Below, one piece after another: positions 679 to 29,359 of a stretch of DNA of 64,000 nucleotides. Within the stretch, counting starts at the first letter, position 1. Each line of letters opens with the position of its first letter. The stretch comes from Syntrophales bacterium (GTDB taxonomy: Bacteria > Desulfobacterota > Syntrophia > Syntrophales > UBA6807), in the NCBI GenBank assembly GCA_040767195.1, contig JAXGPA010000001.1:928419-992418 (forward strand), written 5' to 3'. The position numbers were made by a program, and so were the translations under genes. The notes beneath the pieces were generated by a model. It was not told where the DNA came from. It was given only the letters and a program-made list of their open reading frames with translations, and made no database searches.

Positions 679-1200
679 TCACAGGGCCTTGAGAAGCGTC
701 GACCAGCGATTCACGTGGCCTTCCTCGTCATGGAGATTCTTTTCCACGACGGCCCGGCTCCCGTCGTCCCAGGGAATGTCCCGGAGAAGCTCCCCGTAGT
801 GTTTCACCGCCAGGGTCTCCACCCAGACGGCCGTCTTCAGCATGGCCTTCCTTCCCAGGAGCCGGGAAAAAAACCCGAAAAAGAAGCCGACGATCCAGTA
901 CATCCATCGGAACTTGTCCGGCTTCCAGCCGTACTCGTAAAGCTTTTCCTGAAAATCCTGGTAGTGGGTCATCTCGTTGGCCATGGCCGCGATGAGCTGC
1001 CGGTTCATTTCCGAGCGCTCCGCCGTAATCTGGAACTTGTAGATGTTCTGCGCCATGAGTTCCAGTGTGTGCAGCGTCCTGAGACCCTTTTTGATTTTCC
1101 GGAGATCCTCCGGCGACGCGCCCGATCCAAGGAACTGAAAATCAGCCGCTACCCGTTCCGTCCGGATGATTTCTCTGCTTCCCTCACCGCTTTGTGTCAT
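679..1200 (-). CDS. Ferritin-like di-iron carboxylate protein (COQ7 / demethoxyubiquinone-hydroxylase-like family)
   Basis: Four-helix pattern with E / ExxH / E / ExxH ligand motifs (LELMAQ, NEMTHY, VETLAV, DEEGHV). ATG at 1200 is preceded by AAGGAG. The ORF track's longer version starts at TTG 1218. Confidence 0.7.
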   Translation of the reverse strand: MTQSGEGSREIIRTERVAADFQFLGSGASPEDLRKIKKGLRTLHTLELMAQNIYKFQITAERSEMNRQLIAAMANEMTHYQDFQEKLYEYGWKPDKFRWMYWIVGFFFGFFSRLLGRKAMLKTAVWVETLAVKHYGELLRDIPWDDGSRAVVEKNLHDEEGHVNRWSTLLKAL

Positions 1201-1232
1201 CTCTCGCTCCTTTCCCAATCAGGCCGGCCGTG

Positions 1233-2567
1233 TCAGAACTGCCGCATGAGGGCATGGCAGGCGATGTGGACGGGGTCCCAGGCCCCGCCGAAAGGCGGGG
1301 AATAGGCGAGATCCATATAGGCGATTTCGTCGATCTTAAGACCCGACCACAGGGCCGCGGAGAGAAAATTGATCCGGCTCACCGTCCCCCTCGATCCGAC
1401 GGCCTGGGCGCCTAAAAACCTTCCCGTGGAGCGGTCGGCGATGAGTTTCAGATGAATCCTTTCTCCCCGGCTCATGGAACGGGCCGTGGGCGTTCCGGTC
1501 ACTTTTTCGACAACCGGCGTGAATCCGCTCTGTTTCGCCTCCCCTTCGTCGAGACCCGTTGCGGCCACTTGGAGATCGAAAACCTTGAAGGACTGGGCGC
1601 CGACGACCCCGGGAAAGAGGAGGGGCGTTCCCCCGATATTGGATCCGGCCACCCGGCCCTGCTTGTTGGCGATGTCCCCCAGGGGCAGGGACGTCCAGGA
1701 CTGGCTGACCCGGTGAAAGACTTCGGCGCAGTCGCCGACGGCGTACACCCCTTCCCGGGAGGTTTCCTGGGAAAAGTTGACCCGCAGGGCTCTCGTTTCC
1801 CCGACGGCGAGACCGATGGTCTCCGCCAGGCGGGTCTCGGGCCTCACGCCCGTGGCCACGAGGAGGAGGTCCGTGTCGATTTCCCCCCGGTCGGTGACAA
1901 CCCGAAGAGGCGACGAAACTCCTTTTTCGACGGCTTTCGGAGACGTTTCCGGGTGGCAGTGAACGCCGTGCTTCACGAGTTCTTCCTTGACCAAGGTGGC
2001 GTAGTCGGGGTCCCAGCGTCTCACGGGGAGTTTCGCCCGCTGAATGAGGGACGCTTCAACGCCGGCGGTCCGGAAGGCTTCCGCCATTTCCATGGCGATA
2101 AAACCGGCCCCGATGACGGCCGCTTTTTTCACTTTTCCGCTTCCGATGGCCTCCTTGATGGAAAGGGCATCGGGAAGCGTTTTCAAAACATGCACCCCGG
2201 GTAGGTCCAGCCCCGGAACGGGGGGCATCGTCACCGATGCGCCGGTGGCAAAAACGAGAATGTCATAGGGGATTCTTTCGCCCGTCCGAAGGCGAACTTC
2301 CCCTTTATTCTCGTCGACTTCTTCCGCCTCCGTGTTCAGGCGGACCCGAATCCCCGACTTTTCAAAGGCTTCCGGCGTCCTGGCAATCAGTTTCTTTTCG
2401 CTTGCGATTACATCACCGATGTAATAGGGCATCGGTCAGGTGGCATAGGATACATACGGCCCTTTTTCGAGAATGGTGACATCGAGAGAGGGGTCCCGCC
2501 TTTTCGCCTCCGCCGCCGTGGAGGGGCCTCCGGCCCCGCCGCCGATGATGACAAGCCTTTTTCCCAT
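1233..2567 (-). CDS. Selenocysteine-containing pyridine-nucleotide-disulfide oxidoreductase (CoA-disulfide reductase / NADH oxidase-peroxidase family); in-frame UGA at 2438-2436 read as Sec44
   Basis: The track ORF 1233..2432 lacks the FAD-binding N-terminus. Reading upstream in the same frame gives ATG 2567 (SD GAGGAGG) then MGKRLVIIGGGAGGPSTAAEAKRRDPSLDVTILEKGPYVSYAT-TGA-PMPYYIGDVI. The motif SYAT[U]PMPYYIG aligns with SFAN[C]ALPYVIG around the redox Cys43 of CoADR. The full length of 444 aa is typical for the family. Confidence 0.85.
2407..2425 (-). promoter_or_regulatory. Putative bacterial SECIS hairpin downstream of the in-frame UGA
   Basis: The mRNA sense is AUUACAUC-GGU-GAUGUAAU, an 8-bp perfect stem with a G/U-containing apical loop. 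The stem starts 10 nt after the UGA. An alternative smaller stem CCGAUG/CAUCGG lies directly after the UGA. Confidence 0.55.
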
Positions 2568-2586
2568 AATGTTCCTCCTCTAGCGA

Positions 2587-3447
2587 TCATCCCCCGGCTC
2601 GGGATGTACTTTTCTTCCCACTCCATTTCACAACCATGATCCCTGCGCCGGCAAAAATCATGACAAGGCAAAGAACCTGGCCGGCCGTGAACAAGCCGAA
2701 AAGAAAGCCCATCTGGATGTCCGGTTCCCTGAAAAACTCGATGAAAAACCGGACGGTTCCGTAACCCACCAGGTAGAGGGCCACAAAAAAACCCTGGAAG
2801 ACGTTTTTTCGACGGAAGCCCCACAGAACCGCAAAAAGGAAAAGTCCCTCGAAAAAGCCCTCGTAGAGCTGCGAGGGATGACGAAGCTGCCCCGAGGGAT
2901 CGGAAGGGAAGTACATGCCCCAAGGCACCGTGGTGATCCGTCCGTAAAGCTCCCCGTTAATGAAATTTCCGATGCGCCCGAAAGTATACCCCAGGGGGAT
3001 GGCGGGGCACAGGAGATCGCCGAAGGCCCAGAAGCCGATCCCTCGCCGGCGGCAGAAGAAAAGGGACGCCGCCAGGACGCCGAGAAGCCCCCCATGATAG
3101 GACATGCCGCTGATGCCGGTGTATCGTATCGTTCCCGAAGACCATTCGAAGGGTAAAACGATTTCCAGGGGGTGTTGAAGAAAATAGGACGGCTGATAGA
3201 AGATGGCGTAACCGATTCGGGCCCCGATGAGAAGCCCGAGAATGGCCCAGACAAAGTAGTCCTGGATCAGTTCAACGGAAAAGGGCAGGCGTTCCGACCG
3301 GACCCGGTAACGAACGAGGGCATACGTGGTGAGAAAGGCCAGGAGGTACATGAGGCCGTAATACCGCAGCTGAAACGCCCCGAACTGGACAATGACGGGA
3401 TCGATATGGGCCGGGAGATGCTGCCAGAAACGGATGAGCGATTCCAC
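2587..3447 (-). CDS. lgt: Prolipoprotein diacylglyceryl transferase
   Basis: 286 aa polytopic membrane protein with the Lgt motifs YHGGLLG and GRIGNFINGELYG. GTG start. Confidence 0.9.
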   Translation of the reverse strand: MESLIRFWQHLPAHIDPVIVQFGAFQLRYYGLMYLLAFLTTYALVRYRVRSERLPFSVELIQDYFVWAILGLLIGARIGYAIFYQPSYFLQHPLEIVLPFEWSSGTIRYTGISGMSYHGGLLGVLAASLFFCRRRGIGFWAFGDLLCPAIPLGYTFGRIGNFINGELYGRITTVPWGMYFPSDPSGQLRHPSQLYEGFFEGLFLFAVLWGFRRKNVFQGFFVALYLVGYGTVRFFIEFFREPDIQMGFLFGLFTAGQVLCLVMIFAGAGIMVVKWSGKKSTSRAGG

Positions 3448-3797: not shown

Positions 3798-4766
3798 TCA
3801 ATCATAGGCCCGGCCCTTGAGGCGGTCTACATACAATTCCGACCCGTGAGCCGCCGTCGCCCCGTCGCCGCAGGCGGTGACGACCTGGCGAAAAGCCTTC
3901 CGGACACAGTCGCCGCAGGCGAAAAGGCCTTCCGCCGACGTTTTCATGGCTTCGTCCACGATAATATAGCCATTCCCGTCGCACTTGACAACCTCCCGCA
4001 CGAAATCCGTATTGGGCACAAGGCCGATGAAAATAAAGACGCCGTCCACGGGAATAACGGTCTTGCGATCGGGATCGTTGACATCCCGGAGACGAAGGGA
4101 TGACACGGCTTCCTCCCCGATGATCTCCTCCACCACGGAATTCCAGGCGAAACGGATTTTTTCGTTGGCCAGGGAACGCTCCTGGAGAATTTCCGCCGCC
4201 CGGAGACGATCCCTCCGGTGGATGAGAGTCACCTCCCGGGCAAAGCGGGTGAGAAAGAGGGCTTCCTGAACGGCGGCGTCCCCGCCGCCCACGACGGCCA
4301 CGGCCCGGTTCCGGAAAAAGGGCCCGTCGCAGGTGGCGCAGTAGGACACCCCGCGTCCGGTGAATGTTTTTTCGCCGGGGACGCCCAGGTTCCGCCACAC
4401 CGCACCGGTGGCCACGATAACCGACCAGGCCTCCCAGGTTTCCGACTCCCCGGTGACGGCCCATCGGGGCGGGCCTCCTCCCCGGGCCGGTGTGACCGAG
4501 AGGACCTGCTCGCTTTTGATCTCCACACCGAAGGACACGGCTTGTCCTTTCATCCGGTCGATAAGCTCGAAGCCGCCGATGTCCGGGATTCCCGGATAGT
4601 TTTCGATGATGTCGGTGACGGTGATCTGGCTCACCGTGGAACTGCCCTCCAGAAGAAGCGTCTTCATTCGGGACCGGCCGCAGTAAAGGCCCGCCGTCAA
4701 ACCACCGGGACCGCCGCCTATGATGATCACGTCGTATATGTCCCCCGATTCAACGCTCTTTGTCAT
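3798..4766 (-). CDS. trxB: Thioredoxin-disulfide reductase
   Basis: Motifs GGGPGG (FAD), redox CATC, GGGDAA (NADPH) and GLFACGD. ATG at 4766 is preceded by GGAGG. The track's longest version starts at 4799. Confidence 0.9.
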   Translation of the reverse strand: MTKSVESGDIYDVIIIGGGPGGLTAGLYCGRSRMKTLLLEGSSTVSQITVTDIIENYPGIPDIGGFELIDRMKGQAVSFGVEIKSEQVLSVTPARGGGPPRWAVTGESETWEAWSVIVATGAVWRNLGVPGEKTFTGRGVSYCATCDGPFFRNRAVAVVGGGDAAVQEALFLTRFAREVTLIHRRDRLRAAEILQERSLANEKIRFAWNSVVEEIIGEEAVSSLRLRDVNDPDRKTVIPVDGVFIFIGLVPNTDFVREVVKCDGNGYIIVDEAMKTSAEGLFACGDCVRKAFRQVVTACGDGATAAHGSELYVDRLKGRAYD

Positions 4767-4890
4767 TTCAACCCCTCCTTCCCGCTTATCCTCATCCATC
4801 CCGCCATCCCCTGACGAACCGGTATATTTTTAAAAGTTCATTTTCGACGGCATCGTCAAAGGCTCCAGAGGCCAGGCGCCCCAATCCCCC

Positions 4891-6333
4891 TCACCCCTTG
4901 ATGCAGCCGACGGACCTGAGCCTCGCCACCTTTCGGGAAAGTCCCGCCCGGTGCACCACGTCGACGACATCATCGATATTCTTGTACGCTTCCGGTATTT
5001 CCTCGTGGAGCGTTCCCCGGCCCGCCGCCATGACGATGACCCCCCGGTCCGCCATTTCCCGGGATACGGGCCTGCCCCGGCTCGATTTCATGGCCTGGGT
5101 GCGGCTCATCACCCTTCCGGCGCCATGGCAGGTGCTTCCGAAGGTTTCCCGATACGCCTTTTCGGTCCCCGCGAGAACGTAGGATCCTGTTCCCATGTCG
5201 CCGGGAATCAGCACCGGCTGGCCCGTCGCCTGGAACCGGTCGGGCAGGGCACCGTGGCCCGGCGGGAAGGCCCGGGTCGCCCCTTTCCGGTGGACGCACA
5301 GTTTTTTCTTTTCCCCGGCGACAATGAATTCCTCGACCTTGGCGATATTGTGACACACATCGTAGAGAAGGCGCATCCCCAGTTCCCGGGGGGACAGCCC
5401 GAGGGTCCTCCCGAAAGTCTCCCGGGTCCCGTGCATGAGCATCTGCCGGTTCGTCCAGGCGTAGTTGGCGGCGCAGGCCATGGCGGAAAAGTATTCCTGC
5501 CCCTCCCGGGAGCGGAAGGGGGCGCAGGCGAGCTGGCGGTCCGGCAGGTAAAAATCGAGCCTGGGAATATTTTTCACCATCCGGGCCAGAAAATCGTCGC
5601 AGACCTGATATCCGAATCCCCGGGAGCCGCTGTGGATCATCACCGCCACCTGGCCCGCTTCCAGGCCGAAAGCGGCCGCTGCCGGGGGATCGAAAATTTC
5701 CTCCACCACCTCGATTTCCAGAAAGTGATTGCCCGATCCGAGGGTCCCGAGCTGTTCCCGGCCTCTTTCAAGGGCCCGGGGACTCACCCGTTCCGGGTCG
5801 GCTCCCCCGATCATCCCCCCGTCTTCCGTGGAGAGGAGATCCTCCTCCGTTCCGTACCCTTGCCGGACGGCCCAGCGAGCCCCTTCCAGGAGGACCTTTT
5901 TTTCTTCCGCCAGGGAAAGCTTCATTGTCCCCTTGGAGCCCACGCCGGTGGGAATGTCCCGAAACAGGGCCGTGACGAGGTCCCGGATCCGGTCCCGGAC
6001 ATCGTCGTAGTGAAGCCGGGTTGTCAAGAGACGGCACCCGCAGTTGATATCGTAGCCCACCCCGCCCGGGGAAATGACGCCCTCCTCCAGGTCGAAGGCC
6101 GCCACGCCGCCGATGGGAAATCCGTAACCCCAGTGCATGTCCGGCATGGCCAGGGAATACGAGACGATCCCGGGCAGACAGGCCACGTTGGCCACCTGCT
6201 TGGGGCTTTCGTCGGATCCGATTCCGCCCATCATCGCCTCGCTCGAGTAGATGATCCCCGGAACCCGCATATTCCCCGATGGCGGTATCCGCCATCGGCA
6301 CGCGTCCAGCCTTTCCATGGCGATCTCAGACAT
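4891..6333 (-). CDS. rtcB: RNA-splicing ligase RtcB (3'-phosphate/5'-hydroxyl RNA ligase)
   Basis: 480 aa with RtcB hallmark segments (GYDINCG, HSGSRGFG, HNIA, CHGAGR). The start overlaps the archease stop by 8 nt. Confidence 0.93.
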   Translation of the reverse strand: MSEIAMERLDACRWRIPPSGNMRVPGIIYSSEAMMGGIGSDESPKQVANVACLPGIVSYSLAMPDMHWGYGFPIGGVAAFDLEEGVISPGGVGYDINCGCRLLTTRLHYDDVRDRIRDLVTALFRDIPTGVGSKGTMKLSLAEEKKVLLEGARWAVRQGYGTEEDLLSTEDGGMIGGADPERVSPRALERGREQLGTLGSGNHFLEIEVVEEIFDPPAAAAFGLEAGQVAVMIHSGSRGFGYQVCDDFLARMVKNIPRLDFYLPDRQLACAPFRSREGQEYFSAMACAANYAWTNRQMLMHGTRETFGRTLGLSPRELGMRLLYDVCHNIAKVEEFIVAGEKKKLCVHRKGATRAFPPGHGALPDRFQATGQPVLIPGDMGTGSYVLAGTEKAYRETFGSTCHGAGRVMSRTQAMKSSRGRPVSREMADRGVIVMAAGRGTLHEEIPEAYKNIDDVVDVVHRAGLSRKVARLRSVGCIKG

Positions 6334-6748
6334 CGCAGATCACCCGTCCCTTCCATCCCGTCCCGGTTCGGACGACATCCAGGCCGTGGTAGGTCACGGC
6401 CTTTATTTCCATCTCCATCCGGTGCCTTTGGGGATCGAAAAACTCGCCTCTCCCGGTCCCCGTGACCCGGTATTCCGCCAGGTCTTCTATTGTAAAATCC
6501 CGGAACAGCACGCCTTCGGCGGAGGCCCTGTAGAGAACCTCCCGGAGCAGGTTCACGAGAAGGTCGTCCCACGCGGTCCCGTCCACGGAAAACCGCCAGG
6601 TACGCTCCGGCCGGACGGCCTCGAGATCGGTCATGAGATCGAAGAGGGCGTGGACACCGTTTTGCAGAAGTTCCCCGGGGTCCGCCCCGAAAATCTCGAT
6701 TCCCAGGTCGGCGGTGTGCTCGAAAAGACGGTACCTGGGGAAGTCCAA
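6326..6748 (-). CDS. Archease (RtcB activator)
   Basis: 140 aa. N-terminal F/YEHTADLGIE motif and C-terminal KAVTYH motif typical of archease. The start lies 3 nt after the gyrA stop. Confidence 0.88.
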   Translation of the reverse strand: MDFPRYRLFEHTADLGIEIFGADPGELLQNGVHALFDLMTDLEAVRPERTWRFSVDGTAWDDLLVNLLREVLYRASAEGVLFRDFTIEDLAEYRVTGTGRGEFFDPQRHRMEMEIKAVTYHGLDVVRTGTGWKGRVICDV

Positions 6749-6751
6749 CGC

Positions 6752-9265
6752 TCATTCCTCCAAAAGATCGGCTTCCGGGGGCAGATCCTCTTCATTCATG
6801 ATATCTGTCGTTATCTCAAGGTCTTCTCTGTCGTCTTCGGATCCACGCTCTACCCGGACCACGCCGACAATCGTCTCGTTTTCCGTGAGGTCCATGAGCT
6901 TGATGCCCTGCGTGCCCCGGTGGAGGAGGGAAATTTCGTTTACCCGGAGACGGATGATCTGCCCGCTGTTCGTCAGGAGAATCACATCCTCGTCGCCCGT
7001 CACCTGGCGGACACCGGCGATGAGGCCCACCCGGGGAACGGTCTTCAGGTTGATGATCCCCCGGCCGCCCCTTCCCTGGCGCCGGTATTCGGAAACGTCC
7101 GTCTTCTTGCCGAATCCCTTCTCGGTGACCGTGAGGATGTCGTGCATGTCTCCCACCGTTTCCATGGCCACGACGAAGTCCTCTTTTTCCATGGTGATGC
7201 CGATGACGCCTCGCCCCGTCCGGCCTATGGGACGGACGTCCGTTTCCCGGAACCGGATGGCCTTCCCCTGCTTCGTTCCCAGCAGAATGTCCTGGGTCCC
7301 GTCGGTGAGCTTCACGGCGATGAGTTCGTCGTCCTCGTCGATGGTGATGGCAATGATGCCCGTGGATCGGGGATTGGAATAGGCGGCCAGGTCCGTTTTT
7401 TTGACGATACCCTTCCGGGTGCTGAAAAGGACGTATTTCCCGTCCTCGAAGTCGCGGACAGGCAAAATGGCAGCCACCCGCTCGTCCCGGACCAGCTCGA
7501 TGAGATTGACAACGGCTTTTCCCCTGGCCATCCGCCCCGCCTGGGGGATCTGGTGAACCTTGAGCCAGTGGACCCTTCCCTTGCTCGTGAAGAAAAGGAC
7601 GAAACTGTGCGTGGAAGCGACGAAAATCTTTTCGACGAAATCGTCTTCCCGGGTGATCATCCCCATCCTTCCCCTGCCGCCACGATGCTGGCTCCGGTAA
7701 AGACTCACGGCGTTTCTCTTGATGTACCCCTGGTGCGAGACGGTGACCACCATGTCCTCTTCCACGATGAGGTCCTCCACGGTGATGTCGTCGCTTCCCG
7801 AAACGATTTCCGTTCTTCGGTCGTCTCCGTATCGTTTCTTGATGTCTTCCAACTCGCCGACAATGATATCCAGGATCTTGCCCGGGTCGGCCAGGATACC
7901 TTCCAGTTTTTCCACCAGCTGTTTCGTCTCGCCGTGTTCCTCCAGGATCTTGTCCCGTTCAAGGTTGGTGAGCCTCTGGAGCCGCATTTCCAGAATGGCC
8001 CGGGCCTGGACGACGGTGAGACCGAAACGGTTGCACAGGGCCGTCGACGCTTCCTGCGGGTTGGGCGATTTTTTGATCGTCTCGATGACCCGGTCGATGT
8101 TTTCCAGGGCGATCCTCAACCCTTCCAGGATGTGGAGGCGCTCTCTCGCCCGGCTCAATTCGAAAACGGTTCTCCGGGTGACCACCTCTTTCCTGAAATC
8201 GACGAATCGTTCCAGGACCTCCTTCAGGTTCAGGGTCTTGGGCTGCCCCCGGTCGATGACCATCATGTTGATCCCGAAGGTGGCCTCCATCTGGGTGTGC
8301 TTGTAAAGCTGGTTCAGGATGACGCCGGCCACCTCGTCCTTTTTGAGGTCCATGACGATCCGCATGCCTTCACGGTCCGACTCGTCCCTGAGATCGGAAA
8401 TGCCGCTTATTTTTTTCTCCTTGACGAGATCGGAGATGCGCTCCACCAGGGTGGCCTTGTTGACCATGTAGGGGAGTTCCGTGATGATGATGCTTTCCCG
8501 GTCGTTCCTCGAATTGCGCTCGATGAGGGACCGGGCGCGCATGCGGATGATGCCCCGCCCCGTCCGGTAGGCCGCGAGGATTCCCTCCCGCCCGTTGATG
8601 TACCCGGCCGTGGGAAAATCGGGCCCGTGTATGTGCGTCATGAGCTGTTCCACGGTGATCGCCGGGTCCCGGATGAGAGCCATCGTGCCGTCCAGAACTT
8701 CCCGCAGGTTGTGAGGCGGGATGTTGGAGGCCACGCCGACGGCAATGCCTGCGCCGCCGTTCAGGAGAAGAAGGGGAATCCTGGCCGGAAGAATGGCCGG
8801 CTCCATGAGCGTGTTATCGTAATTCGGCGAAAAATTTACGGTTTCCTTGTCCAGGTCTTCCAGAAGTTCCTCGGCGATGCGGGCCATTCGTATTTCCGTG
8901 TACCGCATGGCCGCCGGCGGGTCGCCGTCAATGGAGCCGAAATTCCCCTGGCCGTCAACCAGGGGATAACGCATAGCGAAATCCTGGGCCATGCGGACAA
9001 TGGTGTCGTAGGCCGCCGAATCCCCGTGAGGATGGTACTTGCCGATGATGTCCCCGACAATGCGGGCTGATTTTTTGTAGGGCCTGTTCCACCGGTTTCC
9101 CAGTTCGTGCATGGCGTAGAGCACCCGGCGATGGACCGGCTTGAGCCCGTCCCGGACATCGGGGATGGCCCGGCCGACAATGACGCTCATGGCGTAGTCC
9201 ATGTAGGACTTCTTCATCTCGTCTTCAATGTCCACGGGAACGTTGCGCTGATAGGTCAATTCCAT
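6752..9265 (-). CDS. gyrA: DNA gyrase subunit A
   Basis: 837 aa. GKYHPHGD and AAMRYTE (catalytic Tyr) motifs, plus a C-terminal beta-pinwheel repeat region. Confidence 0.97.
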
Positions 9266-9359: not shown

Positions 9360-11786
<2,427 letters not shown>

Positions 11787-12878
11787 TTATTCCCTCAACG
11801 GCATGACCAGGGACTTGTAACTCTTGTCTTCTTTCCCGGAAATAACGCCCGGCCGGTCTCCCTCTCGTATGTCCCCCACGACATTCTCTTCGTCCACCCC
11901 TTCGACGGCGTCGATGAGGTAACGGACATTGTAAGTGACCGAAAATTCCCCGCCGTCATAATCGATGTCTATCTCCTCGTTCGCCTCCCCCACATCGGGA
12001 TTCGTCGAGTGAAGTTCGAGCTTTCCAGGGCTCACTTTCAGTATGACCCCCGTGAAATCCTCATTGGAAACGACGTTCATCCGCTTGAGCGAAGCAATTA
12101 TTATATCTCTTTTCAGGATAATTTTCATCCCCTCGTCAACGGGAAAAACCCTCTCGTAATCCGGATATTCGGCATTGATCAGATGAATCCTGAGGTAACT
12201 TTTTTCATGGCGGAAAAAACAGGCCCTTTCGCGAATTCCCATTTCCAGGACCCCCTCGCGACCTTCCACGAAACGACGGACTTCCGCCACGGCCCTGCGG
12301 GGCATGATAACCCCATCTATGGCGACCCCTTCCGGCGCTTCCTTTTCGACCATGGACAGCCTGTTCCCATCGGTGGACACCATGCGTATCCGACCATCCC
12401 GCGTGTGAAGAAAGGCGCCGCAGAGATAAGGCCTCAATTCGTCTGTTCCGATGGTGGCAAAGGTCTTTCGAATCATTCCCGAGAGCATCGATGATTCCAG
12501 CGCAAAGTCTGGTTCTTCCTCGACCAGCACGGTGGGGAACTGGTCCGCATCGAGTCCCGGCAGGCGATACATGACCTTTCCACAGATCACGTCTACCCGG
12601 TTGTTCTCCGGTCTACGAATCACGACCTCCCGACCTTCCCCCTCTCGAACCATTTCGTATATTTTACGAGCATTTACAAGAACAGTTCCCGCCGTTTCGA
12701 CCTTAGCGGGATAGCTGGCAACCAGCCCGATTTCCCTGTCCGTCGCTGTGATCCGGATTTCATCATCCCCGGATTCCAGCAAAAGATTGTTCAAAATGTC
12801 CAGTCCGGCTTTTCCCACAATGGAGAGCGTCCGTTGAATCCCTTCAAGAAAAACATTTCTTTCCACAGTCAGTTCCAT
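11787..12878 (-). CDS. dnaN: DNA polymerase III beta sliding clamp
   Basis: 363 aa with three-domain clamp length and pattern. Sits in the conserved dnaA-dnaN-gyrB context. Confidence 0.93.
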   Translation of the reverse strand: MELTVERNVFLEGIQRTLSIVGKAGLDILNNLLLESGDDEIRITATDREIGLVASYPAKVETAGTVLVNARKIYEMVREGEGREVVIRRPENNRVDVICGKVMYRLPGLDADQFPTVLVEEEPDFALESSMLSGMIRKTFATIGTDELRPYLCGAFLHTRDGRIRMVSTDGNRLSMVEKEAPEGVAIDGVIMPRRAVAEVRRFVEGREGVLEMGIRERACFFRHEKSYLRIHLINAEYPDYERVFPVDEGMKIILKRDIIIASLKRMNVVSNEDFTGVILKVSPGKLELHSTNPDVGEANEEIDIDYDGGEFSVTYNVRYLIDAVEGVDEENVVGDIREGDRPGVISGKEDKSYKSLVMPLRE

Positions 12879-13002
12879 CGTTATTCCTTCCCTTATATTT
12901 TATATTCTTTAAGTAGTATTTATAGGGCTTGGTAATCTGTGGATAGCCTGTTTTTTTCTTTTAATAACGGTTTCTTGTTCTCTTTGGCGTCTGTGGATGA
13001 AA
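12879..13002. other. Candidate oriC sub-region in the dnaA-dnaN spacer: AT-rich DUE candidate plus two DnaA boxes
   Basis: A 33-nt AT-rich tract spans 12893-12925 and includes the tandem 7-mers TTATATT-TTATATT (12893-12906). TGTGGATAG at 12938-12946 and TGTGGATGA at 12992-13000 each differ by one mismatch from the TTATCCACA reverse complement. Confidence 0.55.
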
Positions 13003-14358
13003 TCAGGGGCGCCCCTTGAGGATTTCCTGGATGTCAGCGATAATTTTTTCCGTTTTCGGGTCGTTTTGTGACAGCTTCTGAATTTTGCGAAAAGCGTAGA
13101 TGACCGTGGAGTGATCCTTACCCCCGATACGGTTCCCGATGTCCGGAAAGGAAGCATCGGTAAGGGTTCTGGACAGGTACATGGCGATCTGTCTCGGGAC
13201 GGCCAGGTTCTTGCTTTTCTTTCGGGACTTGATATCGGGAATCTTAAGGCCGAAATAGTCGGCGGTGGCCTTGACGATCTCCTCGATGTCGTATGGCCGC
13301 CTTTCTTCCTGCTTGATCAGTTTTCTGAGGACGGAGTGGGCAAGTTCCATGTCGATTTCTTTGCCTGTCAGGGATGAGTAAGCCATGAGTCCCGTGAGAA
13401 AACCCTCCAGTTCCCGTATATTGGAGTCCGGAGCATGGGTCGCGATGTATCGGGAGACATTCTCCGGAAGGTGGAGATTGTTTTCCTGTGCCTTTTTTTC
13501 GATGATGGCGATCCGGGTTTCGATTTCGGGAGGCTGTATATCCGCAATGAGGCCCCATTCAAAGCGGGACCGCAGTCTTTCCTCGAGGTTCTGAATGTCC
13601 TTGGGAAAGCGGTCGCTGGTTACGACAATCTGCTTTCCCGAGTCATGGAGGGAGTTGAAGGTGTGGAAAAATTCCTCCTGGGTTCTTTCCTTGCCGGCAA
13701 TGAACTGGATGTCGTCTATGAGGAGGGAGTCTATTTTCCTGTACTTATCTCGAAATTTCGTCATGCGGTCGTAGCGGATTGAGTAAATCAGCTCGTTCAT
13801 GAATTCTTCCGCCGACAGGTACAGAACGGTTTTTTCGGGGTAGAGGTTCAGTGTCTGAAGACCAACAGCATTGAGAAGGTGTGTCTTTCCAAGCCCTACG
13901 CCGCCGTAAATAAAAAGGGGGTTGTATATCCTGGCCGGTTGCTTGGCTACGGCGACCGACGCCGCATGGGCGAACTGGTTGCAGGAACCGACAACGAACC
14001 GGTCGAAACTGTAATTGATGTTGAGACGGGGAGACAGTTTTTGACCGGAGGCGAACGACGGTACCCTGTCGTCTTTTTCCGTTTTTCGGGTTCGTTTAAT
14101 TTCTCCCTGAGACTCTTGGGAGGCCCCAACGACAAGGCGGATTTCCACCTCCGTCCCCAGGGCCGTCGACAGGGCTTCCCGGATACTCTGCAGGTAGTTT
14201 TCCTCGATCCAATCCCTGAAAAAACGATTTGGAACGGACAGTTCAATCGCCTTTCCACTCATTCCGAGAATCCGGATGGGCTGGATCCAGGTTTCAAAAA
14301 GCTGGATATTTATTTTGCCCCGCAGGGATTCCAGTGCTTTTTTCCAGGCCGATTCCAT
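13003..14358 (-). CDS. dnaA: Chromosomal replication initiator DnaA
   Basis: 451 aa. AAA+ Walker A GGVGLGKTHLL, box VII/sensor motifs, and the C-terminal DNA-binding helix region (DHSTVIYA). Confidence 0.97.
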   Translation of the reverse strand: MESAWKKALESLRGKINIQLFETWIQPIRILGMSGKAIELSVPNRFFRDWIEENYLQSIREALSTALGTEVEIRLVVGASQESQGEIKRTRKTEKDDRVPSFASGQKLSPRLNINYSFDRFVVGSCNQFAHAASVAVAKQPARIYNPLFIYGGVGLGKTHLLNAVGLQTLNLYPEKTVLYLSAEEFMNELIYSIRYDRMTKFRDKYRKIDSLLIDDIQFIAGKERTQEEFFHTFNSLHDSGKQIVVTSDRFPKDIQNLEERLRSRFEWGLIADIQPPEIETRIAIIEKKAQENNLHLPENVSRYIATHAPDSNIRELEGFLTGLMAYSSLTGKEIDMELAHSVLRKLIKQEERRPYDIEEIVKATADYFGLKIPDIKSRKKSKNLAVPRQIAMYLSRTLTDASFPDIGNRIGGKDHSTVIYAFRKIQKLSQNDPKTEKIIADIQEILKGRP

Positions 14359-14361
14359 GTT

Positions 14362-14393
14362 TTATTCACAGTTTTATCCACAACTGTGGATCA
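14362..14393. promoter_or_regulatory. Cluster of three DnaA boxes in the 47-bp parB-dnaA spacer
   Basis: TTATTCACA at 14362-14370 has one mismatch. TTATCCACA at 14374-14382 is perfect. TGTGGATCA at 14385-14393 is inverted with one mismatch. The last two form an inverted pair. Confidence 0.7.
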
Positions 14394-14405
14394 AATGGCA
14401 TTGTT

Positions 14406-15263
14406 TTATTTTCCTTCCAGCATTTCATCAAGAAGACGCCGGAGGTCGTCATCATTGTGAAAGCGTATCTCGATCCGTCCCCCTTTGCGTTTTCCCGGCT
14501 TTATGCGGACGCGGGTCATGAGCTTTCTGGAGAGCGTCGTTTCCATATCGCTGATGTAGGGGTGAACCACGTTCTTTTTTTCGGGTGATTTTTTCTCTTT
14601 CTCAAATTTGCGGACCAGGGCTTCCGTCTGGCGTACGTTCAGGTTTTTGGAGAGAATTTCACGAAAAGCACGTGTCTGCTCCTTTTCCGAGGGAAGCACG
14701 AGAAGGGCCCGCCCGTGGCCGGCGGAGATCTCTTTTTTGACGAGGCCGTCCCGAATTGGGGCGGGGAGCTTGAGAAGCCTCAGGAAATTGGAGACGGTGG
14801 ACCGATCTTTGCCGACCCGGGCGGCGATTTCTTCATGGGAAAGGTGGAACGTGTCGTGAAGGGTCCGATACCCCTGCGCTTCTTCTACCGGGTTCAGATC
14901 TTCTCTCTGAAGATTTTCTATCAGGGTGATCTCCGCCGTCTGTCGGTCATCCACGTCCCGGATTACCACGGGGACCGTTTTCAGACCCGCCGCCTGGGCG
15001 GCCCGCCACCGACGCTCACCGGCGATGATTTCGTAGCCCCGATTCTGCCGTCTCACCAGAATGGGCTGGAGAACGCCGGAATCCCGAATCGACGAAGCCA
15101 GGCGGGCCTGCTCCTCCGCGTCGTAGTGCCTCCTGGGCTGAAAGCGGTTGGGCTTCAGGTCCTCAATGGCACACAAGTGAAACTGGCCGCCCTTTTCCGT
15201 GTGATCCAGAAGGTCGGAAAAAATCGCCCCCAGACCGCGTCCAAGGGATTCCTTCTTCGCCAT
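14406..15263 (-). CDS. parB: Chromosome partitioning protein ParB
   Basis: 285 aa. ParB box GERRWRAA, an HTH region, and a position directly downstream of parA. Confidence 0.94.
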   Translation of the reverse strand: MAKKESLGRGLGAIFSDLLDHTEKGGQFHLCAIEDLKPNRFQPRRHYDAEEQARLASSIRDSGVLQPILVRRQNRGYEIIAGERRWRAAQAAGLKTVPVVIRDVDDRQTAEITLIENLQREDLNPVEEAQGYRTLHDTFHLSHEEIAARVGKDRSTVSNFLRLLKLPAPIRDGLVKKEISAGHGRALLVLPSEKEQTRAFREILSKNLNVRQTEALVRKFEKEKKSPEKKNVVHPYISDMETTLSRKLMTRVRIKPGKRKGGRIEIRFHNDDDLRRLLDEMLEGK

Positions 15264-16037
15264 CTAAGCCCTCCCGTTGTTCAAGATTTCCCTGGCCAGT
15301 TCGAAATATGCCACGGCGCCGCGGGACGTGAGATCGTAAAGCAAAACAGGCAACCCATGGCTCGGGCTTTCGGAAAGACGGACATTACGAGGGATTACCG
15401 TCTGAAAAACCTGTTTCCCGAAATATTTTCGAACTTCCTCTTCCACCCGATGGGAAAGGCGGTTTCTCGTATCGAACATGGTCAGAAGGATCCCGCCGAT
15501 GGCCAGCTCCGGATTCAGGCGGCCCTGGACCAGTCGAACGGTGTTCATCAGCTGACTCAGCCCCTCCATGGCGAAGTACTCGCACTGGAGCGGGATGATG
15601 AGGAAATCGGAGGCCACGAGTGCGTTGATCGTGAGAAAGCCGAGGGACGGCGGGCAGTCGATGATAATGAAATCATATTCCTCCGAAAGCTGGGACAGGA
15701 GGCCCTTCATCCTGCGTTCCCGATCGGGCAGGCGGACGAATTCTACCTCTACGCCGATAAGGTCCTGGTTCGCGGGAACCACGGAAAGGGCCGGCAGGGG
15801 GGAGGGATGAAGGGTATCCGAGAGTGGAATTTTACCGATCAGGGCCTGATAAAGGTTCTTTTTCTGTACCTGGGAGCGGTCGATGCCCACGCCGCTGGAC
15901 GTGTTGCCTTGCGGATCGCTGTCGATAAGGAGCGTCTTTTTTTCCGCGGCGGCGAGAGACGCGGCAAGATTGATCGCCGTGGTGGTTTTACCCACACCGC
16001 CCTTCTGGTTGGCAATCGCAAATATTTTTTTTCTCAT
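15264..16037 (-). CDS. parA: Chromosome partitioning ATPase ParA/Soj
   Basis: Deviant Walker A NQKGGVGKTT. ATG 16037 gives the usual MRKKIFAIANQKGG N-terminus. The track's longest version begins at GTG 16073. Confidence 0.93.
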   Translation of the reverse strand: MRKKIFAIANQKGGVGKTTTAINLAASLAAAEKKTLLIDSDPQGNTSSGVGIDRSQVQKKNLYQALIGKIPLSDTLHPSPLPALSVVPANQDLIGVEVEFVRLPDRERRMKGLLSQLSEEYDFIIIDCPPSLGFLTINALVASDFLIIPLQCEYFAMEGLSQLMNTVRLVQGRLNPELAIGGILLTMFDTRNRLSHRVEEEVRKYFGKQVFQTVIPRNVRLSESPSHGLPVLLYDLTSRGAVAYFELAREILNNGRA

Positions 16038-16117
16038 ATTTTTCAGGATGTTGATCGTGACAGCCGGGATCACGAAAGGTAAGCGAAGATTAGCATAAAA
16101 TATCTTTTTTTAGAAGA

Positions 16118-16873
16118 TCAAAGTTCAAGGTCCGGCTTCTCCCCTCCAGCCCCCCGGAAAACGAGAAGATGCCGTTCTTCCTGGGAAAAGGGAAGAGAAA
16201 GGGTGACCTGTCTCACCAGGGCAAGGTTTTTTTCGAAAACGGTTTTTTCGGCGTTTTCGATTTCTTCCCGGACCGATCGGCCCTTCATGGCGATAATGGC
16301 GCCCGTCTCCTTGACAAAGGAACTGGAACGCTCGAGGAAGCGGGCCAGGGGAAAGACCGCCCTGGAAACAACGACGTCAAAGGCGTTCCTGTGGATGCCC
16401 CGGGAAATCCAGTCTTCGATCCGGGCCTGCTCCGCCACGATTCCGTCAAGGCTGAAATGACGGATCATTTCCTTGAGAAAGGACTGTTTTTTTCGGGAGG
16501 AGTCTACGAGAACGACGTAAGCGTCAGGTCTGACCATTTTCAGGGGAATTCCCGGGAGACCCGCCCCGGTCCCCATGTCGAGCAGGGCAAACGGCTTCCG
16601 GGGCAGAAGGGGGAGGACGGTCAGGGAATCGAGAAAATGGCGGACGGCGAGATCCCCTATCGTGTCCGCCGAGACAAGATTGACCGATCGGTTCCAGAAG
16701 AGTATTTCCTGCCCGTAGCCACGGAGCATCTCCACGGTCTTTTTTTCCATGGTCAGACCTAGCGACGAGGCTCCCTCCATGAGGAGCGCCTCGAAGGAAC
16801 GTTTCAAATCTTGACTTTCCGGCATGATCCCATTATGCACTTTTCTTACGCCGTCGTGAGCGTTTTCGTTCAT
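16118..16873 (-). CDS. rsmG: 16S rRNA (guanine527-N7)-methyltransferase RsmG/GidB
   Basis: SAM-binding DMGTGAGLPGIPL and conserved context upstream of parAB. The start is uncertain (alternative ATG at 16825). Confidence 0.88.
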   Translation of the reverse strand: MNENAHDGVRKVHNGIMPESQDLKRSFEALLMEGASSLGLTMEKKTVEMLRGYGQEILFWNRSVNLVSADTIGDLAVRHFLDSLTVLPLLPRKPFALLDMGTGAGLPGIPLKMVRPDAYVVLVDSSRKKQSFLKEMIRHFSLDGIVAEQARIEDWISRGIHRNAFDVVVSRAVFPLARFLERSSSFVKETGAIIAMKGRSVREEIENAEKTVFEKNLALVRQVTLSLPFSQEERHLLVFRGAGGEKPDLEL

Positions 16874-17692: not shown

Positions 17693-17742
17693 AGACAGTT
17701 TAAATAACAGGGTTTTTCCCTGATGACCGTTCAGGAGGTTTC

Positions 17743-19071
17743 ATGGACAAAGTCACCGCAGAGCAGGTATTGCGGACAGTCAAGGAAAAAAATATCCATT
17801 TCATCCAGTTCTGGTTTACCGATGTCCTGGGCATGCTGAAGAGCTTTTCCGTGTCGCCGTCGGAACTGGAAACGGCCCTCCAGGAAGGCATGGGGTTCGA
17901 CGGATCCTCCATCGAGGGGTTTGCCAGGATCGAGGAAAGCGACATGATCGCCATGCCCGACCCCGCCACTTTCACCGTCATTCCCTGGCTGGATCAGAAC
18001 GGGTCGGTCGCCCGGGTCTTCTGCGACATCGTCAATCCCGACCTGACCCCCTATGACGGGGACCCCCGGTACGCCCTCAAGAAAATGATCAAGCGGGCCG
18101 CGGACAAGGGATACACATTTTTCGTCGGTCCCGAGCTGGAGTATTTTTATTTCACGGGCAACCAGTCTCCGGAGATCCTGGACCGGGGCGGCTACTTCGA
18201 CATGTCTCCTTCCGACCTGGGCGGGGACATCCGCCGGGCCACGGTGAAAACGCTGCAGCAGATGGGAATCACCGTGGAATACAGCCACCACGAGGTAGCC
18301 CAGAGCCAGCATGAAATCGACCTCCGGTACGGTGACGCCCTCAAGATGGCCGACACGGTCATGACCTCCCGCATCACCGTCAAGGAAATAGCCGGTAAAT
18401 TTGGCATGTACGCCACCTTCATGCCGAAACCCATTCTGGGACAGAACGGGAGCGGCATGCACGTCCACCAGTCCCTTTTCCGGGGGGAAAACAACGCCAT
18501 GTACGATCCCTCCGATGCCTTTCATCTTTCCGACATGGCGAAGCACTACATCGCCGGCCTCCTCAAGCACGCCCGGGAAATCACCGCCGTGACGAGCCAG
18601 TGGGTCAATTCCTACAAGAGGCTCGTCCCGGGTTACGAGGCGCCGGTCTACATTTCTTGGGCCCGGCGGAACCGGTCCACCCTGGTCCGGGTACCCATGT
18701 ACAAGCCGGGTAAGGAAAAGGCCACGAGAATCGAGTACCGGAGCCCGGACCCGTCGTGCAATCCCTACCTGACCTTCGCGGTCATGCTTGCCGCCGGCCT
18801 GGAGGGGATCGAGAAAAAATATCCCCTGCCGGCGCCGGTGGAAGAGGACATTTACACCATGCCGCCGGAAAAGCGGAAAAAGAAAAAGATTTACGACCTG
18901 CCTGGTAGCCTTGTCGAGGCCGTCCAGGAAGTGGAAAAAAGCCGGGTTGTCCGGGACGCCCTGGGAGAGCATATATTCAAGAAATTCATCGAGAACAAGC
19001 GGGTGGAATGGGATCTTTACCGGATGCACGTCTCCCGGTTTGAAATCGACAAATACCTTCCGATCCTGTGA
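17743..19071 (+). CDS. glnA: Glutamine synthetase type I
   Basis: 442 aa. GS beta-grasp N-domain and catalytic-domain motifs (FDGSSIEGF, KPILGQNGSGMHVHQSL, NPYL). Confidence 0.95.
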   Translation: MDKVTAEQVLRTVKEKNIHFIQFWFTDVLGMLKSFSVSPSELETALQEGMGFDGSSIEGFARIEESDMIAMPDPATFTVIPWLDQNGSVARVFCDIVNPDLTPYDGDPRYALKKMIKRAADKGYTFFVGPELEYFYFTGNQSPEILDRGGYFDMSPSDLGGDIRRATVKTLQQMGITVEYSHHEVAQSQHEIDLRYGDALKMADTVMTSRITVKEIAGKFGMYATFMPKPILGQNGSGMHVHQSLFRGENNAMYDPSDAFHLSDMAKHYIAGLLKHAREITAVTSQWVNSYKRLVPGYEAPVYISWARRNRSTLVRVPMYKPGKEKATRIEYRSPDPSCNPYLTFAVMLAAGLEGIEKKYPLPAPVEEDIYTMPPEKRKKKKIYDLPGSLVEAVQEVEKSRVVRDALGEHIFKKFIENKRVEWDLYRMHVSRFEIDKYLPIL

Positions 19072-19102
19072 CATTGCCTGCTCAGGCGGGAAAGGAACCC
19101 AT

Positions 19103-20260
19103 ATGGAAACCCTGTTTACCTATACAGGCGCGAAAAAGATTGTTTTCGGGAGGGGGGCACTGGACCGCCTCCCCGAATTCACGGCCGAACTGAACGGAAA
19201 AAAACCGCTTGTCGTCATGGACGGTTCCCTGGCCCGGTCGGGATTGTCGCGGCGGGTGTCCCTTCTTCTGGAGGGGGCGGGCGCCGCGCCGGTTCTTTAT
19301 GATGCCATCGAGGGAGAGCCGGAACTGGAAAAGGCCGATGAAGGGGCCCGGATCGCCTTGGAGAACCGGTGCGATGTCGTGGTGGGAATCGGCGGCGGCA
19401 GCGCCATGGACGCGGCGAAGGCCATGGCGGCGGTGGCGGGAAATGGTGCCCGGGCGGTGGATTTTCTCGGGTTGAACCGTATCCCGGGGCCCGGTCTTCC
19501 GACGGTCATGATTCCCACGACAGCGGGAACGGGCAGCGAGGTGACCTTCACCGCTGTCTTCATCCGGAAAGACCTGAAGAAAAAGGAAGGCATGAACAGC
19601 CCCTATCTCTATCCCCAGGTCGCCCTTCTCGATCCCCTGCTCACGCTGGGCCTTCCGTCCATGCCCACGGCGACGACAGGCATGGACGCCCTGTGTCATG
19701 CCATCGAGTCCTACACGTCGGTGAACGCCAGTCCCATGAGTGCCCTCGTGTCCCTGGAAGCCATCCGGCTCATCGGCGCGAACCTTCGGACGGCCGTTCA
19801 CGACGGTGGCAACCTGGCCGCCCGGGAGGCCATGCTCCTGGGAAGCCTGTACGCCGGCCTCGGGCTGGCCAACGCCGGCGTGACCGCCGTCCACTCCCTC
19901 TCCTATCCCCTGGGTGGCCGCTTCGGCGTCCCGCACGGCTTGGCCAACACGGTGCTCCTGCCCGCGGTCATGGAATACAACATCCCCGGGGCCCTGGAAA
20001 AGTTCACCCGGGTTGCCGAAGCCCTGGGTGAAGAGACAAGCGGTCTGCCCCTGCGGGAGGCCGCCTGGCTCGCCGTGGAGGCCGTCTCGGGGCTCATCCG
20101 CGACTGTGCCGTTCCCATGGGGCTGGAAGGGTTGGGGGTCAAGGAAGAAGACTTCCCCTCGCTGGCGGAAGTCGCCATGACGGTGGCGCGACCCCTGGCG
20201 AACAATCCTTGTAAAGTGACAGCCAGGGATGCCGTCAACATTTACCGCCAGGCCTTTTGA
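19103..20260 (+). CDS. Iron-containing (class III) alcohol dehydrogenase family protein; KdnB-like by context
   Basis: METLFTYTGAKKIVFGRGAL..., GGGSAMDAAK, and metal-binding His-rich segments (HAIESY, HSLSYPLG). The internal ATG 19103 has an upstream GGAAAGGA. The track ORF 18788 overlaps the glnA 3' end. Confidence 0.85.
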   Translation: METLFTYTGAKKIVFGRGALDRLPEFTAELNGKKPLVVMDGSLARSGLSRRVSLLLEGAGAAPVLYDAIEGEPELEKADEGARIALENRCDVVVGIGGGSAMDAAKAMAAVAGNGARAVDFLGLNRIPGPGLPTVMIPTTAGTGSEVTFTAVFIRKDLKKKEGMNSPYLYPQVALLDPLLTLGLPSMPTATTGMDALCHAIESYTSVNASPMSALVSLEAIRLIGANLRTAVHDGGNLAAREAMLLGSLYAGLGLANAGVTAVHSLSYPLGGRFGVPHGLANTVLLPAVMEYNIPGALEKFTRVAEALGEETSGLPLREAAWLAVEAVSGLIRDCAVPMGLEGLGVKEEDFPSLAEVAMTVARPLANNPCKVTARDAVNIYRQAF

Positions 20261-20314
20261 GAGGATGATGACGAAGGCCTGAAAAGAAAGAAATGGGAAA
20301 GGGAAGGAAAGACC

Positions 20315-28552: not shown

Positions 28553-29359
28553 GTGAAAATAGTGCGCTTCCTCTCGAAGGATCTCAAGGAATGTTACGGT
28601 GCGTGTCTGCCCGAAGATCCGGGACGGGCCCGGCTTCTCGAAGGGGATCTCTTCGGTTCCTATGCCGTGACGGACAAAACGGAAGAAATCGGGCGGTATC
28701 TTCCGCCTCTCGCGCCTGTTAATATTTTTGCCCTGGGGTTCAATTACGGGAAGCACGCAGAGGAAAGCGAGGTGTCCTATCCGGAAAATCCGGTGTTGTT
28801 CATCAAGGCGACAACCAGCCTCACCGGCCATGAAAGCCCCATTGTCCTTCCCAAGGCCGGTCCGGACGAGGTGGACTACGAAGCGGAACTCGCCATCGTG
28901 ATTGGAAAGGCGGGGAAAAACATTCCCGTGGACAGGGCCCTCGATCACGTTTTCGGGTATACTTGCGCCAACGATGTGAGTTCCCGGGACTGGCAGTTTC
29001 ACAGGCAGAAAAATCAGTGGACCCGCGGAAAGAGTTTCGACACCTTCTGTCCCCTCGGACCGTACCTGGTCACCCGGGACGCGCTGGAAAACCCGAACGA
29101 TCTGCGGATCCGTTCCCTGCTGAACGGAGCCGTGATGCAGGATTCGAGAACGTCGGACATGTTTTTCACCGTTGAAGAAATCGTGAGCGACTTGAGCCAG
29201 TCCATGACCCTGGTGCCCGGGACGGTCATTCTGACGGGGACCCCGGAAGGGGTGGGTTTCGCCCGGGTTCCCCCGGTGTTTCTCCGGGCGGGCGATCGGA
29301 TTACCGTTGAAATCGAGGGGCTGGGCGTTCTTTCCAACCCTGTTGTTATGGAAGACTGA
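28553..29359 (+). CDS. Fumarylacetoacetate hydrolase (FAH) family protein
   Basis: 268 aa. FAH-family motifs (VDYEAELAIVIGK, GKSFDTFCPLGP, VILTGTPEGVG). Confidence 0.88.
   Translation: MKIVRFLSKDLKECYGACLPEDPGRARLLEGDLFGSYAVTDKTEEIGRYLPPLAPVNIFALGFNYGKHAEESEVSYPENPVLFIKATTSLTGHESPIVLPKAGPDEVDYEAELAIVIGKAGKNIPVDRALDHVFGYTCANDVSSRDWQFHRQKNQWTRGKSFDTFCPLGPYLVTRDALENPNDLRIRSLLNGAVMQDSRTSDMFFTVEEIVSDLSQSMTLVPGTVILTGTPEGVGFARVPPVFLRAGDRITVEIEGLGVLSNPVVMED

Follow-up and report, generated by a model that had tools for sequence, protein, structure and literature searches.

Near one end of the stretch of DNA analysed here is a minus-strand gene for a flavoprotein of the coenzyme A (CoA)-disulfide reductase (CoADR) and NADH oxidase (Nox) group, interrupted by a single in-frame TGA. 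The stretch, referred to here as the window, comprises 64,000 nucleotides of contig JAXGPA010000001.1 (positions 928,419 to 992,418) from a Syntrophales bacterium, and all coordinates are counted from its first letter. The TGA is at the position of the redox-active cysteine and is predicted to encode selenocysteine (Sec); downstream of it is a hairpin that resembles a bacterial Sec insertion sequence (SECIS). The features of the gene are listed below.

1233–2567, minus strand: full predicted selenoprotein gene of 444 codons and a stop codon, codon 44 being the predicted Sec codon; the product is a CoADR/Nox-like flavoprotein using FAD and NAD(P)H.
2574–2580, minus strand: Shine–Dalgarno (SD) sequence GAGGAGG, with a spacer of 6 nt to the ATG at 2567–2565, read from the sequence.
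2439–2567, minus strand: N-terminal 43 codons with the FAD-binding GxGxxG motif (IIGGGAGG), given by gene callers as a separate 43-residue open reading frame (ORF) and conserved at the protein level in all Sec-form loci.
2436–2438, minus strand: in-frame UGA, predicted to be read as a Sec codon, placed at the redox-Cys position by alignment to the Cys of 6ruz, 5l1n and 4fx9 and of full-length homologues.
2426–2435, minus strand: 10-nt spacer between UGA and hairpin, CCGAUGCCCU, in which wobble positions vary among homologues.
2407–2425, minus strand: putative bacterial SECIS core, with the 5' arm AUUACAUC (2425–2418), the loop GGU (2417–2415) and the 3' arm GAUGUAAU (2414–2407), from the RNAalifold consensus.
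2415–2436, minus strand: competing 7-bp stem, ACCGAUG (2436–2430) with CAUCGGU (2421–2415), in the minimum free energy (MFE) structure of the window sequence, where it shares bases with the UGA and with the putative SECIS (5' arm and loop).
1233–1235, minus strand: ordinary stop codon of the gene, likewise TGA, from sequence and translation.

Translated in the minus-strand frame from 2567 to 1233, the window contains one in-frame TGA, at 2438–2436, which is codon 44. The N-terminus of the 444-codon product is MGKRLVIIGGGAGG, the junction around the TGA reads GPYVSYAT-stop-PMPYYIGD, and the stretch of the predicted product spanning residue 44 is GPYVSYAT-U-PMPYYIGDVIASEK. The ORF list represents the gene by two pieces only, of 43 residues (2436–2567) and 399 residues (1233–2432), and the GenBank entry, HOP34896.1, is a 399-residue 'FAD-dependent oxidoreductase'. 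The 399-residue version is very probably a mis-annotation of the gene as a truncated protein, devoid of the FAD-binding N-terminus and the catalytic residue. A first-pass annotation, made from the letters of the window alone, had foreseen such a truncated gene call, and its frame, ATG, SD sequence, TGA and hairpin are all found, on re-reading, exactly where it had placed them.

The product, with Cys put in at codon 44, matches Pyr_redox_2 (PF07992, 8.7e-58), Pyr_redox (PF00070, 2.6e-21) and Pyr_redox_dim (PF02852, 2e-15), and thus has an FAD-binding Rossmann fold with GxGxxG, an NAD(P)H Rossmann fold and a C-terminal dimerisation domain. Among NCBIfam models, those of CoADR fit best (TIGR03385, 386.1 bits with an equivalog cutoff of 578.8; NF007123, 366.8 bits with a cutoff of 458). 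Together with the three Pfam domains, the TIGR03385 match bears out the family assignment of the first-pass annotation; owing to scores below the equivalog cutoffs, CoA-disulfide reductase activity and the substrate are not established, and we refer to the protein as CoADR-like only.

Aligning over their full length, the nearest solved structures are the Thermus thermophilus 'NADH oxidase' (6ruz, 3.6e-95) and the Pyrococcus CoADR/CoA-dependent NAD(P)H sulfur (polysulfide) reductase (NSR) structures (5l1n, 4fx9 and 3kd9, ~1e-85), the group as a whole spanning 1e-84 to 1e-95. These enzymes share with the window protein its domains, its motif and a single redox residue, which is Cys in the Thermus and Pyrococcus enzymes and a UGA codon in the window gene. 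Codon 44 aligns with this conserved Cys (VSYGAC-GLPY in Thermus Nox, VSHAPC-GIPY in Pyrococcus CoADR). More than 100 full-length homologues recovered by protein search have Cys at the codon-44 position without exception, often inside the identical peptide C-PMPYYIGDVIKD, so that the UGA falls on the active-site Cys, as first proposed. As the SYAT-U-PMPYY region contains no second Cys, there is no CxxxxC disulfide pair, and the single redox position is the UGA. Judged by these alignments, the 43-residue and 399-residue ORFs are in all probability one gene, encoding a 444-residue flavoprotein of the CoADR/NADH oxidase group with Sec44 as its single redox-active residue.

More distant matches in the structure list are NADH peroxidase (Npx), the H2O-forming NADH oxidases and Staphylococcus aureus CoADR. 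Enterococcus Npx (1joa/1nhp) and the H2O-forming Nox of Streptococcus and Lactobacillus (2bc0, 5vn0) have the same fold and the same single-Cys position, albeit at a much greater distance from the window protein (E ~1e-48 or weaker). The single Cys of Npx and Nox forms a Cys-sulfenic acid. The window protein has GGGAGG at the site of what is presumably the catalytic His10 of Npx and Nox (GSSHGG). A related catalytic domain is also present in CoADR–rhodanese fusions (Shewanella NACR/Npsr, 3ntd; Bacillus anthracis CoADR-RHD, 3icr; CoA-persulfide reductase, 8a56). Unlike these, the window protein has no rhodanese domain; at least one Sec-form relative (P0107, L011 3001–4515) has one at its C-terminus (PF00581), with 504 residues after the UGA, a possible sign that members of the clade act on sulfur or persulfides. 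The rhodanese-bearing form was noted together with a further gene, of 549 codons, from the genome set.

The interruption is conserved across genomes. The protein search returned many homologues of exactly 399–400 residues, covering 90% of the query. In ten loci of such 'truncated' homologues (399, 400 or 504 residues, 58–83% identity), the TGA is at the same codon in all ten, a 43-residue ORF ends 3 nt before the called gene, and its 43 codons encode the conserved GxGxxG N-terminus. Scanning one-genome-per-species contigs with a TGA-spanning pattern (TGA CCN ATG CCN TAY TAY AT) gave matches in at least 120 species genomes; among the matches listed, ~107 truly belong to the family and have an unbroken upstream frame, whereas 5 arose by chance in unrelated contexts. 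The carriers among the matches listed are overwhelmingly Syntrophales, Syntrophaceae, Smithellaceae or 'Deltaproteobacteria' metagenome-assembled genomes (MAGs), and a few are labelled Acidobacteriota or Aminicenantes. The same Sec form, with an identical hairpin, is found in L015, L020, L023, L084 and L087, from MAGs with the latter two labels; horizontal transfer, descent from an old common ancestor or errors of binning may account for these occurrences.

Throughout these loci the upstream segment has the properties of coding sequence. Pairwise differences in the upstream 43 codons are 0.27, 0.16 and 0.60 per site at codon positions 1, 2 and 3, a coding signature. An ATG is at the equivalent place in 124 of 125 homologous loci and an SD-like motif in 121 of 125, and complete genes are mostly 443–445 codons long, with no extra stops or frameshifts.

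Starting 10 nt downstream of the UGA is the hairpin, formed by a perfect 8-bp stem and a 3-nt loop. Hairpins of this kind are not rare, as the window contains 21 perfect 8-bp hairpins with 3–9-nt loops, compared with ~8 in shuffled sequences; for any given site, the probability that one starts within the 7-nt placement range downstream is ~0.002. The decisive evidence for the hairpin is comparative and not that of a single sequence. The stem is built from the codons TAT TAC ATC (GGN) GAT GTA AT, and its integrity therefore hangs on wobble positions that are unconstrained by the protein. Counted over 117 unique Sec-form sequences, the wobble positions within the stem are invariant at +15 (C), +18 (C), +24 (T) and +27 (A), and T is present at +12 in 114 of the 117. 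Wobble positions outside the stem vary (+3, G80/C28/T5/A4; +9, C87/T23/G6/A1; +30, C85/T21/A11), and the third base of the loop (+21) is free (T60/C38/G15/A4). Every one of these sequences uses the Val codon GTA in the stem, although it makes up just 10% of the Val codons in the rest of these genes.

Departures from the stem sequence are few. Two of the three sequences with C at +12 (L049 and L057) also have G at +28, a compensatory change of a U–A to a C–G pair at the cost of an Ile-to-Val substitution; L044 has a G·U pair in the stem and L088 one mismatch. The RNAalifold consensus of 113 unique Sec forms is exactly the 8-bp, 3-nt hairpin, with no other conserved pairing. The hairpin is present in all ten of the loci found via protein similarity, which form an independent sample.

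In its geometry the hairpin resembles the E. coli fdhF SECIS and the bSECIS model (Zhang and Gladyshev 2005, in PMC13188914), in which a hairpin within the coding sequence follows the UGA by ~10–11 nt and has a small apical loop starting with G. The loop of 3 nt is within the 3–9 nt of the model, the stem of 8 bp within 4–16 bp and the UGA-to-loop distance of 18 nt within 16–37 nt, and GG occupies the first two loop positions. It differs from fdhF and the model in the absence of a bulged U, in having no conserved U in the loop (GGN), in a loop of only 3 nt and in a weaker core.

A control was provided by Cys forms, collected on metagenome contigs using the same pattern with TGY, which yielded 12 family members. 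Nine of these have a different loop peptide (IAD or IQD) and only 4–5 of the 8 stem pairs. In the other three the peptide CPMPYYIGDVI is identical: one has GAT GTG ATT, one has GAC GTC ATC (stem broken) and one (L189) has the whole hairpin. Other Cys forms of the family have just 4–6 of the 8 pairs. Many Cys forms have Ala, Gln or Ser instead of the Gly encoded at the loop, which is invariant in all Sec forms recovered. As the stem is kept in Sec forms and decayed in most Cys forms, its fixation appears, on this small control, to go with the TGA and not with the peptide.

Several results weigh against the Sec reading. The Cys-form control with an identical peptide comprises three sequences only, and the search pattern itself fixed most of the 5' arm, leaving +12, +15, +18 and the whole 3' arm as the unbiased positions of the large set. 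The core hairpin has an energy of −5.2 to −5.8 kcal/mol, short of the bSECIS threshold of −7.5 kcal/mol; including non-conserved flanking pairs brings the window sequence to −10.7 kcal/mol, and 104 of 113 homologues are at or below −7.5 kcal/mol when the hairpin is enforced. No Rfam family was matched at gathering thresholds across the whole window, and a permissive local scan gave a chance snoRNA hit only (E = 2.6). Queried by tblastn with the E. coli proteins, the window, a small part of the genome, and 1.54 Mb of related loci gave no match to SelA, SelB or SelD, and tRNA-Sec was not found by ARAGORN in the same sequences. No second selenoprotein was found in the window, where a scan for ORFs with a single TGA interruption returned noise only. 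The family-model scores below their cutoffs belong among these points as well.

The remaining point concerns the fold. In the partition function of the free window RNA, the competing stem has a probability of ~0.997, compared with 0.003 for the conserved hairpin, and the MFE fold of the single sequence has a z-score of only −1.6. The competing stem was rejected as a functional structure, its G at 2433 being replaced in 37 of 117 homologues while +24 and +27, which are outside it, are invariant. Folding of this region, a check proposed in the first-pass annotation, recovers its hairpin in the consensus of the homologues but not in the MFE fold of the window alone, which uses the competing stem; the structure conserved across the Sec forms is nonetheless the proposed hairpin and not its thermodynamically preferred competitor.

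A different decoding of the same codon is very unlikely. UGA44 could be read through by a standard tRNA (a near-cognate Trp, Cys or Gly tRNA, or a suppressor), with the hairpin acting as a generic read-through stimulator, as downstream hairpins can in other systems, and the failure to find Sec machinery in the window and related loci would fit such read-through. At a catalytic Cys position, however, only Cys or Sec would be expected from family enzymology to be functional, and the hairpin has bSECIS geometry with GG in its loop. TGA is also a normal stop here: it is the commonest stop codon, ending 14 of the 22 family-supported genes of the window, including lgt just upstream and the Sec gene itself, so that recoding is local rather than global. 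The order is, moreover, rich in selenoproteins, with 19, including SelD, reported for Syntrophus aciditrophicus (PMC1794560).

Rather less probable still is the synthesis of two products with no recoding, a 43-residue peptide and a 399-residue protein re-initiating two codons past the UGA, from the ATG at 2432. In every locus an ATG does follow the TGA by 3 nt, and the 399-residue ORF is what gene callers give, but this Met belongs to the CPMPYY motif in Cys forms too and is thus no dedicated start. The 399-residue protein would be left with neither the FAD-binding GxGxxG fold nor the catalytic residue, and the invariant wobble positions of the hairpin and its decay in Cys forms would go unexplained.

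That the hairpin is a codon or peptide constraint, or an unrelated regulatory element, and independent of the UGA has a very low probability. Cys forms also conserve the peptide YYIGDVI, and one of them, L189, keeps the entire hairpin. Set against this are the GTA codon, universal in the Sec forms but present in one of the three peptide-identical Cys forms, the loop Gly, which many Cys forms replace but the Sec forms recovered do not, and the acceptance of Val for Ile where pairing is restored.

Scarcely worth entertaining is a pseudogene or assembly error turning TGC or TGT into TGA in an ordinary CoADR-like gene: a single base separates TGY from TGA, close Cys forms exist (L012, with TGT, and L189) and GenBank treats the gene as a 399-residue protein, but the same TGA and split are found in three independent assemblies of the 399-residue product (ENA, NCBI GCA_035380265.1 and JGI; 99.3–100% nucleotide identity), with no sign of the TGC, TGT or frameshift that the first-pass annotation had named as refutations, and the recurrence of the TGA in more than 100 other species, with the upstream 43 codons, start and SD sequence under coding selection and no extra stops or frameshifts, excludes this possibility for practical purposes.

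With these alternatives weighed, the comparative sequence evidence argues strongly that this is a genuine selenoprotein gene, in which UGA-encoded Sec would replace the single catalytic Cys of a CoADR/Nox-type flavoenzyme. Once a ribosome has arrived at UGA44, it would enclose the UGA and the mRNA as far as about +10 and thereby melt the competing stem. The third base of the UGA and the next six bases belong to this stem; with the UGA in the A site they are within the mRNA channel, and the stem cannot exist at that moment. Release of the 3' partner in the stem would leave the 19-nt hairpin, from +11 onwards, exposed at the mRNA entrance. This melting and exposure step follows from ribosome footprints and the E. 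coli fdhF model. By the established bacterial mechanism, SelB·GTP·Sec-tRNA(Sec) would then bind the GG-containing apical loop and deliver Sec; lacking selenium or SelB, the ribosome would terminate after residue 43.

In the folded enzyme, by analogy with the enzymology of the family, NAD(P)H would reduce FAD and the flavin would in turn reduce oxidised Sec44. The oxidised residue may be joined in a selenenylsulfide to CoA or to a different thiol or persulfide, as in CoADR/NSR-like enzymes, or may be a selenenic acid, as in Nox/Npx-like enzymes. The regenerated selenolate would attack a disulfide, persulfide, polysulfide, peroxide or O2-derived substrate.

Selenoproteins of this family have been listed before. 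An 'NADH oxidase' selenoprotein family, with Geobacter metallireducens as carrier, is in a 2006 survey (PMC1794560) and was found again in the metagenome of the Olavius symbionts (PMC1976440), as the first-pass annotation had, with some uncertainty, correctly stated. The family has been on selenoprotein lists since 2004, with the motif UGxP given for the redox site (PMC13188914), and the present finding does not overturn current knowledge for this reason. The listed Geobacter-type form belongs to the same protein family (TIGR03385), has Sec directly before x-x-P at the redox-Cys position and likewise comes from a bacterial, formerly 'deltaproteobacterial', anaerobe; both are computationally predicted. 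The window gene differs in having UPMP in place of UGxP, the second residue being Pro and not Gly, where the reference protein (WP_011365774.1, G. metallireducens) was compared by its listed motif only. The 2006 survey does not give this family for Syntrophus aciditrophicus (PMC1794560). What is new is the Syntrophales member with the UPMP motif, the family itself being already known. Among the open-access literature, no paper was found on biochemical work with a Sec-containing member of the CoADR type.

Sec forms (94) and Cys forms (108) are interleaved in a neighbour-joining tree, with ~20 parsimony changes between the two states, and the Cys form L012 is beside the Sec form L003. L012 (P0003) is the Cys form nearest to the window gene (72% identity), with TGT as codon 44 (at 541–543) and ATA GCC in place of ATC GGT. 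L012, with its stem damaged only at the top and in the loop, and L189, with TGY and the complete 8-bp hairpin, look like carriers of fossil SECIS elements, and on their sequences both look like very recent Sec-to-Cys conversions. Given a hairpin sequence common to all Sec forms and kept, wholly or in part, by some Cys forms, repeated loss of Sec to Cys from a Sec-containing ancestor would be the economical reading. The chances are a little under even that the window gene represents the Syntrophales part of a large clade of CoADR-like selenoenzymes not catalogued before, which extends to MAGs labelled Acidobacteriota and Aminicenantes; Sec would be ancestral in this clade, maintained by an unusually small, invariant SECIS of 19 nt, and would have given way to Cys on ~20 separate occasions that left fossil hairpins behind.

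Flanking the Sec gene are the following genes.

679–1218, minus strand: COQ7-like ferritin-like di-iron protein, the downstream neighbour (NF033656, 45.8 bits, weak).
2587–3447, minus strand: lgt, prolipoprotein diacylglyceryl transferase (TIGR00544, 239.8 bits), ending 19 nt before the ATG of the Sec gene.
3798–4799, minus strand: trxB, thioredoxin-disulfide reductase (TIGR01292, 369.8 bits, above cutoff), with conserved synteny.
4891–6748, minus strand: archease and RtcB RNA-ligase pair, between gyrA and trxB, a placement conserved in L001, L004, L204 and L205.

The order gyrB–gyrA–archease–RtcB–trxB–(zinc ribbon)–lgt–[Sec gene]–COQ7-like–UbiA is conserved in relatives, with PF03232 COQ7 followed by UbiA at the equivalent place in homologous loci. 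Adjoining the Sec gene in all loci examined is lgt, and in several relatives the start of the Sec gene and the stop of lgt overlap by 4 nt, which suggests that the two are probably co-transcribed. In one relative (L008 3125–3700) a rubrerythrin is inserted between lgt and the Sec gene, which fits an oxidative-stress context. The neighbours are compatible with a role in thiol/persulfide metabolism or oxidative stress and do not establish one.

The window is an origin-proximal region of the chromosome, with dnaA, dnaN, gyrB, gyrA, parAB and rsmG in addition to housekeeping genes and genes for electron-transfer flavoprotein (ETF) and acyl-CoA dehydrogenase. Its other features are as follows.

9360–16873, minus strand: origin-type cluster, with gyrB, dnaN, dnaA (13003–14358), parB (14406–15263), parA (15264–16073) and rsmG (16118–16873).
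42941–47583: cluster of ETF alpha and beta, acyl-CoA dehydrogenase, FixX-like and FixC/ETF-quinone oxidoreductase (ETF-QO)-like genes.
57550–58674, plus strand: unassigned ORF, one of the real genes opposite a 1432-residue ORF, from third-position GC (GC3) analysis.
58705–60291, plus strand: serA-like gene, likewise.
60463–61770, plus strand: purA, likewise.

The stop codon of parA is followed immediately, and in frame, by the parB ORF, and the gap between dnaA and parB is ~48 nt. The ETF and acyl-CoA dehydrogenase cluster is typical of syntrophic oxidisers of fatty or aromatic acids and fits the Syntrophales assignment. The 1432-residue ORF (57637–61935, minus strand), which has no Pfam match, was rejected as an antisense artefact of high GC (GC1/2/3 = 0.73/0.43/0.59), and similar long-ORF artefacts are at 6251–9070 (plus strand) and at 17731–19074, 19082–21154 and 29346–30941 (minus strand).

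Two other loci of the window were considered in the context of Sec. Proteins of the thioredoxin-fold/AhpC-TSA/Redoxin family are often Sec-containing in Syntrophus and Geobacter; the secreted member encoded at 54327–54818 (plus strand) has a WCAPC motif and is hence a Cys form. The pair 34399–35478 and 33874–34371 (minus strand) is probably not a TGA-split gene: the DUF362/4Fe-4S (Fer4) protein, which ends in TGA, has a complete DUF362 domain, and the next ORF in the same frame, of 165 residues (33874–34371), has no family match. This ORF has a coding-like GC3, and 33874–35478 probably comprises two adjacent genes.

The same truncated annotation affects more than 100 species genomes, mostly of Syntrophales. 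A corrected annotation gives back to these strictly anaerobic syntrophs a probable enzyme of thiol/persulfide chemistry or oxygen defence, encoded beside trxB. The sequence-invariant 19-nt hairpin is a compact and well-supported example of a SECIS, and could serve as a search model for the SelB specificity of this lineage. The many switches between Sec and Cys within one orthologous group offer matched pairs for asking what benefit selenium brings to a single-Cys flavoprotein, and, if the clade does descend from a Sec-containing ancestor, the comparison of Sec with Cys in a single-chalcogen flavoenzyme would be one that nature has already run in replicate.

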